Positions 44,401 through 53,400 of a stretch of DNA of 64,000 nucleotides are shown here, piece after piece (positions within the stretch are counted from its first letter, which is position 1; the number at the start of each line of letters is the position of its first letter). Position numbers: made by a program. Where the stretch lies: NCBI GenBank assembly GCA_963719315.1, contig CAVRBU010000006.1, positions 246,801 through 310,800 on the forward strand, read 5' to 3'. The DNA is from an uncultured Planctomycetota bacterium (GTDB lineage: Bacteria; Planctomycetota; Planctomycetia; Pirellulales; Lacipirellulaceae).

Positions 44401-47400
44401 CGCCTGGAATATCCAGGCAAAGAAGATTCTCGATGCGGCACATCCCGAGGCCGCAGTGGGGCTCATTCCGCAGAAAAGCCGGGGCGACAGGACGGCAATT
44501 GAACTTTTTGTGAACTAGTCCAGTCCTGGCCGAAGGCTGTAGTCCTGGCCGCCACATCGCTGATCGAAAAACCGGCCGCTCTGTGTGTGGTGGGCGACTT
44601 CGACTACTTCGCCGGCACCGTCACTTGCGGCCCTCGAGAATTCTTTTCAGGACCACGGCCTCGTTGTGTTCCTCATCTCGCGCACCGTAGACCAAGGTGA
44701 CGGTGCGTTCCGCGCTCTTTTGCCTCAACAATTCGAGGGCGTCCTGCTTGTCTCGGAGTTCCTTCCGGTAGCGGACCTGAAACTGCTTCCATTTGGCGGG
44801 ATCGTGATCGAACCACTTGCGCAGCTCCGTGCTCGGAGCCAACTCTTTGAGCCACAACTTCACCGCTGCGCGCTCTTTGCTCAACCCGCGCGGCCACAAT
44901 CGGTCGACCAGAACTCGCAGGCCGTCTCTACGAGACGGTTTTTCGTATACTCGCTTAAGTTGGATCACTTCTTTTGGTCTCCTCGCCGCTAGCGCCGAAT
45001 TCGCACCTCGAACTGTTTCCTTTCCGTCGATTCGAGCTTGCGATCCATTCGGCTACCTGTACAGGAACGTGCGAATTGACCTCACAGCATGCTGGGGGAC
45101 GGATTGTGTACGACATTCGCGGGGTCTTCGTCGGTCAGTGGTTGGCTGGACTTCTGCCAAGCCTCGTAACTTGCCAGCGGACTGCCTTGCTCGAACTTGC
45201 CGCGATTCTCGCCGAGGTCCTTCAACGTCGCCCAGCGAACTTAGGCCAACAACTGCTGCTCGGAGTTGAACGTGGCTACAAGGCGGCGGTCAACGCCTTT
45301 TTTCGATCCGTAGAGATAATGCATCGGTGGTCTCCTTGTTGAGCAAACGCGTCTCAGTGTTTCACGGGTTTTAGCAGGATCGTCACCAGCAGCGACGAAT
45401 CCTGTACCGCCCGCAGCGCGTGTTCGTCGCCTCCGCTAAGGTAGAGCAATTGGCCGGGCGTCAACTCCTGCTCTTTCCCGCGGGCGGTGAAGACCGCTTT
45501 CCCTTCGAGGCATTGCACGGTGATTTCGCCGGGCACGGCGTGCGGGTCGATCTGCTTGCCGGCGGGCAGCACGAGGCGGAGCACTTCCAAAGCATCGGTT
45601 TTTACCAGCGTCGTAGTTTGCTCCGCGGGCAGGTTCTCGCCCAATGGGGAAATGTCGATTACTTCGGCCGGATGTGCGTGATGGATGGCCATTAGAACTC
45701 TCTTGTGTCGTGCTTACGGACTTGCGAAACGAATGCCCCGTGCGTAATTGCCTCCGCATGAGGGGCCACAATCGGAGCGGTCGCCTTGACGATGGCGATG
45801 GTCTGTTCGGTGAGCATGGAAGCCTCGCGATTTTTGTCTTTGGGAGGGGGATGCCAATTACGGCAAATCAATTGAAGGCCGAGAAGCGGCCTGGGTGGGT
45901 GTTTCACCAGTCCAATATAGGGCTTGAATAGTACACGTCAAGATGTAGAATTGGCGGAGTCGCTTGTGAGGAGAACCGCATGCTTCCCAAGACCGCCGAG
46001 TATGCCCTGCGTGCCGCCGTTTGGTTGGGCGCGATCCCGATCAGACACAATCGGCCGACCATCTCGCCGAACGCACGCAAGTGCCGCGGCGATACCTGCA
46101 CAAGGTCTTGCAGGATCTGGTTCGCGCGCAACTCGTGCGTTCACACTCCGGGCCGGGCGGCGGTTATGCGCTCGTCCGTGCGCCGCAAAAGATCACCATT
46201 CTGGATGTCGTAAATGCCGTAGCGCCGCTGGAGCGAATTCGTCGTTGCCCGTTGGGTTTGACGTCGCATACGCGGCTCTGCCCGCTGCACAAGGAATTGG
46301 ATCGCGTTTATGCGGCGACGGAGAAAGCGCTCGCCAATGTAACGCTCGCGCAATTGCTACGATCGACCAGCCAGATTGAGTCGCTCTGCGAGGTGACACG
46401 ATGAAAGCGTGACACCCACGATCGTCGTAAAAGTAATGTCGAAATCTAGACTCCGATTCAATTCCGTTGACCGGACCATTGGGTAGGTGTCCAATTGGCC
46501 AACACTTTTTCATACTGGGACGGATTTCCATGAGGCGAGAAGTTCTCGTAGCGACGCTGGTGGGCACCCTGGCGACGATCCTCCTCGCGGTCTTGATCGT
46601 CATTGGGTCGCGTCGCCTGGCTCATATCGATGCTGCGCTGGTTGGCTACACCTTCGCCACGTTGTTCAGCGTGTTTGGAATTACCTATCGCTACGCGATG
46701 TGGCTGCAACGCCCGCCGACGTGGATGTATTGGAAGCGCGGTTGGCAGCTGTTCCTCGATCCGCGCCATCTGTCCAGCAATCTTGTGTCCTGGGCACGCC
46801 GTCTGTTTAATGCCTTCGTGATTAATCGGTTCATTTGGCTCCGCGGCGCAACGCGCGGCGCAGCCCATTGGTTGATCATGTGGGGCTGCATTCTGGCGGC
46901 CGCGATTACCTTTCCACTTGTTTTTGGCTGGATCCATTTTGTCATCGTGGGCGACAAATTCGAGCGATACCGTGTCGTGATCTTCGGATTCGAGACGTTT
47001 TCGTTTCCCATCGAGTCGATTCTGGGCGCCGTCATCTTTCATGGTCTGGTGTGGTCCGCCTTCCTGGTCATCGCCGGCGTGATGATCGCCATGCGCCGGC
47101 GAATGCGCGACCGCGACGCCGCTGCGCTGCAAACATTTGGCGAAGACGTTATGCCGCTGGTGCTTTTGTTCGCGATCAGCATCACGGGACTGATGCTCGT
47201 CGTCAGCTATGAATGGATGCGAGGGTACGGTTACGAATTCCTCGCCATTGTGCATGCGGCCGTGGTGATTGGAACGCTGGTCTGGCTACCGTTCGGGAAG
47301 TTCTTTCATGTTTTTCAGCGGCCGGCCCAACTTGGCGTTGCTTTCTATAAGGACGCCGGCCAGCGGGGCGAACAAGCGCGCTGCGCACGGTGCGGCGAGA

Positions 47401-50400: not shown

Positions 50401-53400
50401 CGCACCAAGGTCTACATGATGGTTCCCCGCGACGCTCAACCCGAATACATCGACGTGCTCTCGGTTCTCGAAGACGGTGCCATTTCTTCGTATGAAGATG
50501 ACGAGGACGATCCGATGCTGTCAAACCTATTCAACATTCTTGAGGGATCTTGAGGCCATGGCGATCGATCTTGATCCAGAACTGCATACGATTCCCCCGG
50601 ACCGGGGCGAGATGGAGGATCAGCCGACGTGGCGGCGCGACTTCCCCATCGATTCGGTCCAGGATGCTTATGTCGCGCGGCGTGATTTCACGAAATTCTT
50701 GGGTCTGACGAGTCTCGCTCTGGCCGTGGGGCAGGTCTGGATCGGTCTCCAAAGTCGTTGGCGCCACGCGCGCGGCAAGTGGCCGATCGTCGCCGTCGGC
50801 GAATTGAATCAAGTCAGCGTTGGCGGCGCGCTCGCGTTTCGCTACCCAACCGACACCGATCCGGCCATCCTGCTGCGCCCGGATGCGGGCCGCCTGCTGG
50901 CGTACAGCAGCCAATGCACGCACCTGCAATGTCCGGTGTTGCCGGAGATCGAGCAGGGGCGGCTCCACTGCCCGTGCCATGCAGGTTATTTCGACATGAA
51001 CTCCGGCCGGCCGATTGCCGGGCCGCCGCGGCGTCCGCTGCCGCGGATTTCCGTCGAAGTGCGTGGCGGCACGATCTATGCAACCGGATTCGAGGAGTTT
51101 GAGACATGAGCGACCGTCGTCCACTTTCGCGTCAGGAGCGCACGATCATCGTCAGTGGTATTTTGTGCGTCGTCCTGACGCTGGTCGTCATGCAGTTGTG
51201 GCTGATTTCCGCCACGATGAACGCCTGGCTGGGCGGCGACGAGTCCATCGTCTGGCCGGCAGCGCTCGCCAGCGGCGGTTGCTTTTTACTGAACGCCGGG
51301 CTGCTGTGGTATCTTTTCCAACTCGATCGCTAAGCGCATGTCGACAACTCCGCAATATGGGCCGTCGAATTCCGCGATTGCCGAGCTTCACCCGGCATCG
51401 TTCGCGATCGTTATGGCGACCGGGATCGTTTCCGTCGCGGCGCAGCTCCGCGGATTCCATGCCATCGCGCTGCCGCTGCTGTGGCTGAACCTCGTTTTCT
51501 ACGGCGTCCTGTGGGTGCTCACGTCGATTCGTGTTGTTCGTTATCCGCATCGCGTGGTGGCCGATCTATGGGACCACAATCGCTCGGTGGGCTTCTTCAC
51601 GATCTGCGCCGCGACGTGCGTGTTGGGAAATCAATTCGTTGTCGTCCACAGCGTGCCCCGCGTGGCCATTGGACTATGGTTTTTCGGCATCGCGCTGTGG
51701 GCGGTAAGCACGTATGTGATTTTTACGGTCCTGACGGTGAAGGCGATCAAGCCTTCCGTCGAAGAGGGGCTCAACGGCGGGTGGCTCGTGGCCGTCGTGG
51801 CCGCCCAAGCGGTTGCCACGCTCGGCGGTTTATTGGCGCCACAGTTCGGTGCATCGCGCGAGCTAGCCCTGTTCTTCAGTCTGATCGTGTGGCTCGGCGG
51901 CGGCGTGCTCTATGTCTGGATCATTACGCTGATCTTCTATCGCTACACGTTTCTGCCGCTCGATCCTCGCCAGCTCGCGCCGCCCTATTGGATCAACATG
52001 GGCGCGGTGGCGATTTCGACCTTGGCGGGCACCTTGTTAATCAGCAATGCGCCGCAGTCGCCTTTCTTGACGACGCTGTTGCCATTTCTTACTGGGCTGA
52101 CGCTGTTGTTTTGGGCCACCGCGACCTGGTGGATCCCGCTGCTGATTGCCCTCGGGTTCTGGCGGCACGTCTTGCGCCGGGTGCCCTTCCACTACGACGT
52201 CGTCTATTGGAGCGCCGTCTTCCCGCTCGGCATGTACACGGCATGCACTCACCGATTGGTGAACGACACCGGCCAAACTTTTCTTGAATTCATACCGCGG
52301 TATTTTATTTTCATTGCCTTGGCGGCCTGGGTGGTGACCTTTCTGGGACTACTCTCGCACATCGTGCGATGGCTTATGCGAGGTTGAACGATAAATGGAC
52401 GCAGCTTTCGATCAAGTGGTTGCAAGTTACCACCGCGCTCGTGAATCCGGTCAGTTGTTCGACACGTTTTATCAAATCTTCCTGACCAAGTCGCCCGAGA
52501 TTCCATCCATGTTCGCGCGGACCGATTTCCCGCATCAGAACCTGATGCTGCGTGAATCGATCTTGGAAATGCTGTTGTTCGCGCAGACCGGTGCTGGCCA
52601 GGCTGAAATCGAGCGGCTGGCCCGCCGACATCGCCAGTTGAATGTGGCGCCGAGGCACTACGAACTGTGGCTTGATGCCCTCTGCGAGGCATTGGCCGCA
52701 CACGATTGTGAGTTCAACTCGACGTTAGAGCGAATGTGGCGCGATGCGATGCGGAAAGGCATCCAGCTAATGTCAGCAATAGCAGAGCTGCCTTCACAGA
52801 ATCATTCAACGTAGCTGGTATTTCTTCAAGGTTGTATGCCGACGTTGATGCTTCGATGCTTATCGAATCATGAACTCATGTCGTGTCCTGGATGTACCGT
52901 TGTGCGTCCCATCCACAACCGTCACTTCGACTCTACGAGCTGGAACGATCTTTCGATCCGCGACGATGACAACGTAAACGGCATAGCGGTGGTCCAGGCC
53001 GGAGCTCGGTTTGTATAGAACTCAAACTGAACAGCCGAACCGCCAAGGTCGCCAAGAATGCCAAGAAAAGCGGAGAGAAATCAACTCGGCATACAGTTTG
53101 TTCGTGAAAGGCCGTTCCGGCAGTCTATCGCGTTCTAATCGCAATAACTGAAGACTTGGTGCTCTTGGCGTGCTTGGCGGTTTTCACTTTGAGTATTGAA
53201 CAAAGGTCGTGCGACGCTGATCTCGAGTCCTGGTCTGTCGTCTATTCAAGCGAGAATTCAGGATCGGGCCGTCGTCAAAATCGCAATTCCGAACGGTAAC
53301 ATCTTTAATCGACGAGCAGTTATACTGGTTGACGTGACTGTTCTTCGGGCCAAGGCCGGAAATTTTCTGATCGCGGTATCGCTGTTGACGGTGAGCGGTT

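Follow-up and report, generated by a model that had tools for sequence, protein, structure and literature searches.

In the genome of an uncultured member of the Lacipirellulaceae (Planctomycetota), a five-gene core made up of a NarI-like membrane protein, a Nas/Nap-type molybdenum (Mo) subunit, a 4x[4Fe-4S] protein, a Tat-type Rieske protein and DUF6755 probably encodes a dissimilatory, quinol-linked, membrane-bound and cytoplasm-facing enzyme that reduces nitrate to nitrite. The motifs of the active site, the likeness in fold, the gene content with its conservation and neighbourhoods, and the genome inventories were observed directly, while we infer topology, haem content, substrate and the direction in which electrons flow. 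The genes lie in a window of 64,000 nucleotides, which is the whole stretch of DNA that was analysed (Table 1). In this system, a NarI-like cytochrome b would oxidise quinol, most likely menaquinol, on the outer side of the membrane, and haem b would carry the electrons across the membrane to the four-cluster protein, which would dock where the membrane subunit faces the cytoplasm, a surface that is strongly conserved. From there the electrons would pass to the Mo subunit, where nitrate would be reduced to nitrite, while the Rieske protein and DUF6755 would be fixed subunits of the complex. A SLAC1/TehA-like protein would take nitrate in and let nitrite out in this organism, a task that NarK would perform in other hosts. 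Nitrite would be the end product in the host, and for this reason the role is proposed to be dissimilatory, serving respiration or the disposal of reductant under low oxygen.

Table 1. Genes of the locus, with positions counted along the window
Feature	Position	Strand	Basis of assignment
Rrf2-family (NsrR-like) regulator gene, frameshifted	45980..46404	+	tblastn, two frames against intact homologues; Pfam Rrf2
Membrane subunit, 356 aa	46530..47600; longest ORF from TTG 46467	+	NarI-like cytochrome b candidate
Catalytic Mo-bisPGD subunit, 748 aa	47640..49886	+	Pfam Molybdop_Fe4S4, Molybdopterin, Molydop_binding; NasC model
Four-cluster iron-sulfur subunit (DmsB/NarH class), 235 aa	49846..50553	+	Fer4_11, DmsB
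Rieske [2Fe-2S] subunit, 183 aa	50558..51109; longest ORF from GTG 50477	+	Pfam Rieske
DUF6755, 75 aa, two-helix membrane hairpin	51106..51333	+	PF20540
SLAC1/TehA (TDT) family anion channel or transporter, 349 aa	51338..52387	+	PF03595
Single-domain globin, 139 aa	52395..52814	+	Pfam Globin

The seven co-directional genes of the survey's finding were recovered as tightly packed open reading frames (ORFs), with spacings of 39, -41, 4, -4, 4 and 7 nt from the membrane gene through the globin gene, where the start of DUF6755 overlaps the Rieske stop codon. The start of the iron-sulfur (FeS) gene is uncertain, and may be either GTG 49846, which gives an overlap of 41 nt with the Mo gene, or GTG 49897, which lies 10 nt past the Mo stop codon. 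An eighth gene, overlooked in the survey, lies directly upstream and is counted here as part of the unit. This Rrf2 regulator gene, separated from the membrane gene by 125 nt, is split by a frameshift near 46028-46033, with its first 17 codons read from ATG 45980 and the remainder in the frame of TTG 46021. Both frames were compared with intact homologues of loci L016, L017 and L046, where the L046 protein matches the stretch with 75% identity over 126 aa and with a further 18 aa in the other frame (tblastn); the gene product scores 93.6 bits with Pfam Rrf2 over profile positions 19-131 of 132. Homologues of this regulator are found in 17 of 90 related loci.

Among the 57 related loci with enough flanking DNA, which come from about ten phyla, 56 contain the complete five-gene core, and the order of these five genes had already been found in all ten loci retrieved by means of the Rieske protein, a result that holds. 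Cultured carriers include Roseimaritima sediminicola JC651 and Deinococcus sp. D7000. What is conserved of the proposed seven-gene module is the core; the SLAC1 gene is one of two alternative accessories and globin homologues are rare (2/90 related loci). The Mo subunits of related loci are 71-87% identical. DUF6755 (98.8 bits with PF20540) is present as a single copy in the host genome, and 20 of the 401 Pirellulales genomes sampled have it, which is on the same scale as the 43 of 1333 claimed previously; across 40 sequences, Q30, L31, W32, L33, L42, P51, S56, G65 and L66 do not vary, and at least 90% retain M38.

The Mo subunit has an N-terminal four-Cys [4Fe-4S] motif and is without a twin-arginine leader. 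Its reported scores were reproduced, with 786.3 bits for the NasC model (cut-off 1100) and 579.4 bits for Fdh-alpha, and it reaches 63 bits with the narG model, 120 bits with the AioA model and 29-33% identity to the annotated NasA of Ralstonia and Klebsiella. All 16 aligned clade members carry GRLCMVSA, where annotated NasA has SRLCMSSA, NapA has ARHCMASA and formate dehydrogenases (FDHs) have C/U-His; the same 16 carry TGQ..G-(G/A)RE, a motif shared with Nas/Nap that reads RGQ...(C/S/G)D in FDHs. A tree of 27 rows recovers the clade as monophyletic (SH-aLRT 100) on a stem of 0.76 changes per column, and groups it with Nas and Nap to the exclusion of FDHs (SH-aLRT 98). In its Cys-Met and Thr/Arg hallmarks, the subunit thus matches Nas/Nap and not formate dehydrogenase. 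Nitrate is the best-supported substrate, as judged from motifs and context, with the NasC cut-off missed (786 against 1100 bits). A clade-specific HARG(I/L/M)EH motif replaces a different Nas/Nap motif, and the pocket therefore differs.

The membrane subunit, which has a NarI-like fold, is predicted from hydropathy and the positive-inside rule to have six transmembrane (TM) helices with both ends cytoplasmic, where the C-terminus forms a four-Cys (CxxC...CxxC) domain on the predicted cytoplasmic side. Weak matches to TcuB and QmoC were obtained as before (E 9.5e-7 to 5.7e-4), and distant relatives of the subunit show weak matches to Nitrate_red_gam. Only three His are conserved, among them H242 and H260 with a spacing of x17, where NarI uses four; the protein is a candidate NarI-like cytochrome b whose haem content we infer. 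Its best-conserved stretch, residues 53-113, is predicted to lie on the cytoplasmic side. The FeS subunit scores 73.6 bits with Fer4_11 and 99 bits with DmsB, and its sixteen Cys in four groups, together with C46, are invariant in 39 sequences.

Downstream of the core, the SLAC1-like protein scores 167.3 bits with PF03595 and 92 bits with the TDT model, below the cut-off of 237. A SLAC1/TehA-like (34) or NarK-like (28) gene is present in 61 of the 65 related loci whose DNA extends through DUF6755, the last gene of the core, with both in one locus, and the two are near-exclusive alternatives beside the core. NarK is the best NCBIfam family for 14 of 14 adjacent MFS genes, and fusions of NarK with the membrane subunit occur in P0125, P0167, P0197 and L091. 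The globin (28.4 bits with Pfam Globin) has 1tu9 (PA3967) as its nearest solved chain, with 81.5 bits, while RIC/YtfE is found in 19 and an NnrS-like gene in 9 of 90 related loci. These proteins elsewhere, and the Rrf2 regulator and globin here, would handle the nitric oxide (NO) stress that arises from nitrite formation. The neighbours linked to NO stress also include a clade II nos cluster, which adjoins locus L021.

The Rieske subunit (41.9 bits with Pfam Rieske) is ordered as a conserved N-terminal W-R-x-D-F, a twin-arginine motif, one weakly hydrophobic helix followed by basic residues, and a domain of the bc/AioB type that includes the two extra cysteines; in 40 sequences both motifs are invariant and the helix is weakly hydrophobic. 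Matches to QcrA (51.5 bits) and AioB (49.1 bits) agree with those described earlier, AioB is the top match in a profile search against the PDB (69 bits), and Foldseek matches of the AF2 model (pLDDT 90, helix 33-71) include a Chlorobaculum Rieske protein and AioB, the latter with a TM-score of 0.72-0.74 when normalised to the target chain. AioB binds its Mo subunit directly and takes it across the membrane by Tat. The conflict flagged in the survey, between a Tat-like, AioB-like Rieske protein and a cytoplasmic chain, is real and still stands. In the cytoplasm-facing enzyme, the Rieske protein would most likely be inserted by Tat, with its cluster domain outside near the quinol site, while its conserved N-terminal peptide would stay cytoplasmic. 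In our view, nitrate is unlikely to be reduced to nitrite in the periplasm instead, by Mo, FeS and Rieske subunits that assemble in the cytoplasm and leave it as one unit by means of the Rieske Tat signal-anchor, as arsenite oxidase does, with the membrane protein passing electrons outward. Such an arrangement is consistent with the invariant twin-arginine motif and weakly hydrophobic helix, with the presence of TatC in the host genome, with the closeness of the Rieske domain to AioB along its whole length, with Mo and FeS subunits that have no signal of their own, as expected of hitch-hikers, and with the topology drawn for NaoABC (PMC11521347). However, nitrate import would be unnecessary outside, yet nearly all loci have a NarK or SLAC1 gene and some relatives have NarK fused to the membrane subunit; prediction places both the best-conserved face of that subunit and its four-Cys domain on the cytoplasmic side, and an invariant W-R-x-D-F before the twin arginines would be unusual for a mere export signal.

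While the core is usually classed as ordinary nitrate assimilation, where the module would be the organism's Nas with unusual electron donors and nitrite would go on to ammonium, this role is distinctly unlikely for the host. NasC is the nearest curated family, and 16 of the 20 module-bearing Pirellulales genomes have a NirB or NirA-like gene; in three of these 16 (G244, G073 and G131) no second Nas was found, so that the module could be a feeder of assimilation there. However, 13 of the 20 keep a second Nas-like gene beside a NirB or NirA-like gene, and the module is therefore not the assimilatory enzyme of those genomes. In the host genome (90.7% complete), the module is the sole NasC-like match, no second nitrate reductase was recognised, no NarK match reaches the cut-off, and NrfA, NirK, NirS and NirB were not found; its sole NIR_SIR protein is a sulfite reductase, with 721 bits for that family against 184 bits for NirA. 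No nitrite reductase gene occurs among the 128 nearest flanking ORFs, and the NO-stress genes nearby are of the kind typically seen with dissimilatory nitrate reduction.

The survey had called the complex undescribed, which is now doubtful, while its interpretation as a quinol-linked, cytoplasm-facing Nas-type nitrate reductase is the best supported, on the motifs, the NarI-like fold and the alternation of NarK and SLAC1. The core has probably been published once already, as the antimony oxidase NaoABC of an uncultured Symbiobacteriaceae member (ISME J 2024), a periplasmic, quinone-reducing Sb(III) oxidase that, by the paper's description, has the same order of Mo, 4Fe-4S and TM-Rieske genes; the passages on the clusters make no mention of a NarI-like membrane subunit, DUF6755 or transporters (PMC11521347). 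There, naoA is nearest to NapA in a tree without Nas, naoB is a DmsB-like 4Fe-4S protein and naoC is a Rieske protein that resembles AioB and bears a single N-terminal helix; clusters of 5.5 and 6.7 kb, including 'hypothetical' ORFs, were cloned into R. palustris, where Sb(V) formation and 13C uptake were observed (PMC11521347). If the module were likewise an oxidase of Sb(III) or a similar metalloid, oxidation would take place at Mo and the electrons would leave through the FeS and Rieske subunits, for which the shared gene order, these heterologous data and the AioB-like Rieske protein argue. We consider this very unlikely, as the family link is drawn from the wording of the paper, the Mo-ligand Cys and Nas/Nap motifs are retained, the neighbouring genes concern nitrate, nitrite and NO, and the 128 flanking ORFs include a single ArsR-type regulator and no pump for arsenic or antimony. 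Furthermore, the R. palustris host carried cloned narGHI and was given 10 mM nitrate, and 1.25-23 uM Sb(V) formed from 100 uM (PMC11521347), so that, in our view, Sb(III) oxidation in this assay may have been indirect. Reduction of another oxyanion (chlorate, selenate, tellurate or similar) in place of nitrate is highly improbable, because the clade-specific active-site motif, the TehA kinship of the channel and the missed NasC cut-off, which would favour it, are set against NarK-family transporters instead of SLAC1 in 28 loci, NO-stress genes that point to nitrogen oxides, and the retained nitrate-type Cys-Met and Arg hallmarks.

Compared with NarGHI and NarK of the E. coli type, the catalytic subunit of the module belongs to the Nas/Nap lineage with a Cys ligand and not to NarG, and all four Cys groups of its FeS partner are full. 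Its anchor comprises six helices and a four-Cys tail and has fewer conserved His, Rieske and DUF6755 are added, and no NarJ gene was seen. NasC/NasA/NarB is like the module in its Cys-Met and TGQ...GRE motifs and in having no export signal, but the module falls below the family cut-off in a separate clade, its partners are membrane proteins where those of Nas are NasB/NirB, ferredoxin or flavodoxin, and true nas-nir clusters coexist with it in relatives. Among the anchors with a NarI fold (EtfD, QmoC, TcuB, HdrE/DsrM), we know of none that works with a Nas-type Mo enzyme or a Rieske protein. AioAB also pairs a Tat-motif Rieske protein with a Mo-bisPGD enzyme, but AioA has no Cys ligand and a [3Fe-4S] cluster, and Aio has neither a four-cluster protein nor a membrane cytochrome. 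In the narK-bjgb-flp-nasC cluster of Bradyrhizobium, the genes for a nitrate reductase and a nitrate/nitrite transporter are accompanied by that of a small globin that scavenges NO; unlike this single-domain haemoglobin, the rare globin of the module is most like PA3967. Haloarchaeal pNar is encoded with Rieske/cytochrome b genes that have been proposed to feed it electrons. A further precedent is the Caldithrix nap cluster with Rieske/cytochrome b, where the Rieske protein was proposed to feed the nitrate reductase (PMC5317091). Both of these have a true bc-type cytochrome b and a NarG- or NapA-type enzyme outside, as opposed to the NarI-like anchor and Nas-like enzyme of the module.

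All seven co-directional genes reported in the survey's finding were found as ORFs in the window DNA, and its family-scan figures were obtained again with Pfam and NCBIfam; an Rrf2-family regulator gene, lying 125 nt 5' of the membrane-subunit gene, had been overlooked and makes an eighth gene of the unit. The gaps across the seven ORFs are 39, -41, 4, -4, 4 and 7 nt, where the 41-nt overlap between the Mo and FeS genes depends on which of two GTG codons starts the latter, the second of them lying 10 nt past the Mo stop. The Rrf2 gene is frameshifted, with its initial 17 codons in one frame and the remainder in another, and its homologues in three related loci (L016, L017 and L046) are unbroken. 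This frameshift is either a true mutation or an assembly error; if it is real, the repressor of the operon may have been lost. A scan for promoters and terminators did no better than chance (3 where 3.3 were expected, and 8 where 8.2 were), and the genes flanking the operon are ordinary planctomycete genes with no nitrogen connection. Upstream, on the opposite strand, lie genes for a TPR-repeat Ser/Thr kinase and an ECF sigma factor of planctomycete type, which have no evident link to the operon.

Coordinates of the operon genes in the window and of features observed in related loci (L) and Pirellulales genomes (G)
Feature	Sequence	Coordinates	Strand	Remark
Ser/Thr kinase and ECF sigma factor	window	40630-44466	opposite
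Rrf2-family regulator	window	45980..46404	+	frameshift near 46028-46033
Membrane subunit	window	46530..47600	+	356 aa
Mo subunit	window	47640..49886	+	748 aa
FeS protein	window	49846..50553	+	GTG start at 49846 or 49897
Rieske protein	window	50558..51109	+
DUF6755 protein	window	51106..51333	+
SLAC1-like protein	window	51338..52387	+
Globin	window	52395..52814	+
Split Mo and SLAC1 genes, single Rieske-DUF6755 frame	L016	5082-7326, 7863-8774, 8782-9814
Genes 5' of NarK and module	L025	136-2708
Tn3-family transposase	L058	8826-10769
Mutator-family transposase	L059	2732-3892
Membrane subunit annotated 'MFS transporter'	L106	5889-7001
Damaged Mo gene	G392, contig C36	232798-234765		internal TGA
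Damaged Mo gene	G074, contig C1	2682443-2683738		model positions 285-707 alone matched

The order membrane protein, Mo subunit, FeS protein, Rieske protein, DUF6755, described in the survey's finding as conserved, is kept in 10/10 loci from a search with the Rieske protein. A second scan, in which the Mo-subunit alignment was run against species-representative genomes, yielded at least 599 stretches, at least 572 of them relatives. The best 80 of these relatives are each 71-87% identical to the window protein and come from Planctomycetota, several classes of Acidobacteriota and Chloroflexota, Verrucomicrobiota, Gemmatimonadota, Rhodothermales, Armatimonadota, Abditibacteriales and Proteobacteria, with Roseimaritima sediminicola JC651 as a cultured isolate, and among the matches listed hosts from Bdellovibrionota, Deinococcota and further phyla also occur. 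All five core genes are present in 56 of the 57 loci from the best 80 that have enough DNA on both sides. The sole exception, L050, lacks the FeS, Rieske and DUF6755 genes 3' of its Mo gene and has a membrane-subunit gene 2.7 kb 5' of it.

The module is widespread and under-annotated. On plasmid p_2 of the cultured Deinococcus sp. D7000 (L106), where it is flanked by two NarK genes, its products are annotated as 'MFS transporter' (membrane subunit), 'molybdopterin oxidoreductase family protein', '4Fe-4S binding protein', 'Rieske 2Fe-2S domain-containing protein' and 'hypothetical protein' (DUF6755). This 'MFS transporter' is 47% identical to the window membrane protein and has no Pfam MFS match, and mis-annotation of this kind may be common. 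In the window's own order the module is patchy: DUF6755 occurs in 20 of 401 sampled genomes and in three of the seven genomes of the window's genus, the window's genome included; this patchy occurrence, together with very short inter-phylum branches and a tree that does not track phyla, points to horizontal spread. Transposases adjoin the module in two Chloroflexota loci, L058 and L059, which fits such spread.

Several copies are irregular. L016, the locus closest to the window, has its Rieske and DUF6755 genes in a single frame. This is probably due to an assembly indel, as the Mo and SLAC1 genes there are likewise each in two pieces, and it is given no weight for topology. Damaged Mo genes of the module were observed in the genomes G392 and G074. 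Two database proteins may be read-through products or mis-called: in P0234 (830 aa) an MFS piece is followed by the membrane subunit and the start of Molybdop_Fe4S4, and P0279 (368 aa) joins a Molydop_binding domain to DUF6755. In the Acidobacteriaceae locus L025, a NapH/MauN-like ferredoxin-type membrane protein and a DUF438-hemerythrin-PAS protein are encoded 5' of NarK and the module.

The window's Mo subunit scores 786.3 bits on the NasC equivalog NF047855, under its cut-off of 1100, and none of the 20 module copies in the order (514-799 bits) exceeds that cut-off; on the Fdh-alpha model the window protein reaches 579 bits, below the cut-off of 666. An active-site alignment was made of 16 module Mo subunits (the clade) with annotated NasA, NapA, FdhF and YdeP sequences from plasmid records, the diagnostic Mo-site positions being read as in the NapA and FdhF structures. 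Like Nas and Nap, each of the 16 shows Cys-Met at the Mo ligand together with Thr-Gly-Gln ... Gly-(Gly/Ala)-Arg-Glu, whereas formate dehydrogenases have Cys/Sec-His and Arg-Gly-Gln and are without that Arg; the full Nas/Nap set, namely Cys plus Met, Thr for the formate dehydrogenase Arg, and the Arg in G-(G/A)-R-E, is thus present in every clade member. Although FdhF-type formate dehydrogenases came first in a sequence search of solved structures, followed by Desulfovibrio desulfuricans NapA, a formate dehydrogenase identity is rejected on the Cys-Met and Thr-Gly-Gln motifs. Unlike Nas and Nap, which have another motif in common at that place, the clade carries HARG(I/L/M)EH, so that its substrate pocket differs from theirs. 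In a 27-row tree (quick LG+G4 method, no available row omitted), the clade is monophyletic (SH-aLRT 100, stem 0.76), groups with Nas and Nap to the exclusion of the formate dehydrogenases (SH-aLRT 98), and falls outside the Nas and Nap group as sampled without B. subtilis NasC or cyanobacterial NarB (SH-aLRT 99).

At the level of genes, the module follows the CISM plan, in which one operon supplies the FS0-bearing Mo subunit, the four-cluster protein and the membrane anchor. The FeS protein matches Fer4_11, has DmsB as its top-scoring NCBIfam model, and keeps 16 Cys in four groups invariant across 39 sequences. The membrane protein of the window has weak matches to the membrane portions of TcuB and QmoC and no Pfam match, the gathering score of PF02665 (Nitrate_red_gam) not being reached; the sole pass in the family is that of a distant relative, P0200 (23.5 bits vs 22.9). 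This family has no Pfam model and is large, with 6608 proteins at E ≤ 1e-5 in a word-indexed search (8000 candidates) and 1210 clusters at E ≤ 1e-3 among 50%-identity representatives; with Foldseek alone, the structure model of the membrane subunit gave 0 matches at E ≤ 0.001. Hydropathy and charge predict six helices with both termini cytoplasmic. Conservation peaks at residues 53-113, a stretch predicted, like the C-terminal four-Cys domain, to lie on the cytoplasmic side. NarI binds two haems b through four His ligands, two on each of two helices, whereas only three His (H113, H242 and H260) are conserved in the membrane subunit across 41 sequences, with no second conserved His on the H113 helix. 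The spacing of H242 and H260 on the last helix is that of the two His on the last helix of NarI; H113 would pair with H260 at the inner side, and no conserved residue is found as an outer-side partner for H242. The protein may bind a single haem, or two if one ligand comes from another source.

The Rieske protein matches QcrA and AioB by sequence, and a profile search places AioB closest, followed by Thermus and further bc-type Rieske proteins; Foldseek with its model (pLDDT 90), which has a single long helix and a six-residue tether, gives the same family assignment. Across 40 sequences the bc/AioB-type boxes are complete, with C120, H122, C125, C138, C140 and H141 invariant, the disulfide cysteine pair included. 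In the same set an invariant W-R-x-D-F motif is followed, in the N-terminal part, by invariant twin arginines (R41, R42), a helix of weak hydrophobicity and basic residues; 90% or more of the sequences have K46 and F47. The helix falls below a TM call at a Kyte-Doolittle threshold of 1.55, and the window's genome encodes TatC (146 bits vs a cut-off of 132.7). These N-terminal features mark a putative Tat-dependent signal-anchor, and with it a putative export signal. The DUF6755 protein (PF20540, 98.8 bits vs a gathering score of 27) is a hairpin of two helices, in which a QLWL motif is invariant and one Met (Met38) nearly so; none of the 13 longer DUF6755 proteins found has a Rieske domain.

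The neighbours of the core were counted by tblastn over 90 related loci (E ≤ 1e-8, at least 60 residues aligned). A SLAC1-like gene is present in 42 of these and a NarK-like gene in 28, both together in just one, and neither in 21, many of which are incomplete; where the locus reaches DUF6755, one or the other is found in 61/65 loci at the same threshold. NarK is the best NCBIfam family for all 14 MFS genes adjoining the core (206-348 bits, one above cut-off), and in three database proteins and L091 a NarK-like MFS domain is fused N-terminally to the membrane subunit. The window's SLAC1-like protein scores 167.3 bits on Pfam PF03595 (vs 27.9) and 92.1 bits on the TDT model TIGR00816, short of its 237.25, and no solved chain was found for it by sequence search. 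These neighbours suggest that nitrate and nitrite cross the membrane. Genes against nitric oxide damage are also nearby (RIC/YtfE in 19/90, NnrS-like in 9/90 and Rrf2 in 17/90 loci), Moco genes lie near the module in some loci, and a clade II nos cluster adjoins the Bacteriovoracaceae copies. The globin had been taken as part of the module, and its gene is indeed in the window (Pfam, 28 bits); homologues in just 2/90 loci make it a rare companion elsewhere. Among the 128 nearest flanking ORFs, neither a nitrite reductase nor a metalloid pump was seen, and there was one ArsR-type regulator.

In the window's genome (5.93 Mb, 20 contigs, 90.7% complete) the module's Mo gene is the sole NasC-like gene, the other MopB enzyme being YdeP-type. 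NarK above cut-off, NrfA, NirK, NirS and NirB were not found there, and the sole NIR_SIR protein scores as a sulfite reductase, so that nitrite has no recognisable onward route in this genome. The module's Mo gene is present in all 20 module-bearing genomes of the order (incomplete in G074, with the internal TGA in G392). NirB occurs in nine and a NirA-like gene in seven of these, and in 13 a second, more distant Nas-like gene (418-455 bits) lies directly beside that NirB or NirA-like gene; neither nitrite reductase is found in four, the window's genome among them. Most carriers thus combine the module with a normal assimilatory system, and a few have it alone, which fits a dissimilatory role.

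The proposal of a membrane-wired, Nas-type nitrate reductase is partly supported, by the Nas/Nap motifs and the transporter context, and is at odds with the topology of the Rieske protein and its Tat-like signal. In such an enzyme, quinol would be oxidised on the outer side, electrons would pass via haem b and four clusters to Mo on the inner side, and NarK or SLAC1 would swap nitrate and nitrite. This Nar-like scheme is coherent and accounts for the transporter link, and it gives no reason for the Rieske and DUF6755 proteins as fixed parts; our best guess is a membrane-spanning complex in which the Rieske domain would lie outside, by the quinol site. By analogy with arsenite oxidase, whose Mo unit is carried out together with its Rieske subunit, the entire Mo unit would instead be exported along with the Rieske protein, which looks exported and is AioB-like. 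However, an enzyme outside the membrane would have no use for the transporters found at the core and, in the NarK fusions, joined to the membrane subunit; moreover, the conservation of the membrane subunit is concentrated on the predicted cytoplasmic side, and a conserved peptide precedes the twin arginines of the Rieske protein.

A more distant prospect, to which we give little credence, is that the NarI-like cytochrome, the outward AioB-like Rieske protein and DUF6755 form a new electron-splitting quinol-oxidising site like that of the bc complex, with DUF6755 as a haem ligand donor. Cytoplasmic nitrate would then receive one electron by way of haem b and the FeS wire, and the second would leave by the Rieske cluster for soluble carriers in the periplasm (cytochrome c, cupredoxin or the nos system). 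With the fourth His lost from the membrane subunit, Met38 of DUF6755 is proposed to fill the vacant axial position at the outer haem.

If the nitrate reductase reading is true, the module would be a further bacterial nitrate reductase architecture besides Nar, Nap and soluble Nas, and DUF6755 and the bacterial SLAC1/TehA homologues would gain their first roles, the latter as nitrate/nitrite channels interchangeable with NarK. NasC/NasA are regarded as purely assimilatory in the sections consulted of a review of the MopB superfamily (PMC10100899), and surveys that score the module's Mo gene, whose closest match is NasC, as nasA would, on the same reading, book dissimilatory nitrite production as assimilation. 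The term 'DUF6755' is absent from the literature searched, and no description of the module was found in the portions consulted of the literature on nitrate reductases, TehA/SLAC1 and Roseimaritima sediminicola.

The nearest published system is NaoABC, for which Wang et al. (ISME J 2024; PMC11521347) were the only source in the literature searched. In the consulted sections of that paper, NaoABC is named in an uncultured member of the Symbiobacteriaceae, with the order Mo subunit (nearest NapA in a tree without Nas), DmsB-like 4Fe-4S subunit and AioB-like Rieske protein with one N-terminal helix (PMC11521347). It is proposed there as a periplasmic Sb(III) oxidase, and R. palustris with cloned narGHI and nao clusters formed 1.25-23 µM Sb(V) from 100 µM Sb(III) with 10 mM nitrate (PMC11521347). 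No Symbiobacteriaceae locus is among the matches listed from our Mo-alignment scan, and a Rieske scan with L070, a locus labelled Clostridia, gave Blastocatellia as nearest relatives and no Symbiobacteriaceae. Compared through those sections of the published description, NaoABC and the module agree in gene order and domain types, and the paper's wording makes it rather likely that they belong to one family. The module thus probably conflicts with one published claim: if the family is the same, the comparative evidence favours nitrate reduction as its general function, and the assignment of NaoABC as an Sb(III) oxidase is due for re-examination and needs re-testing.
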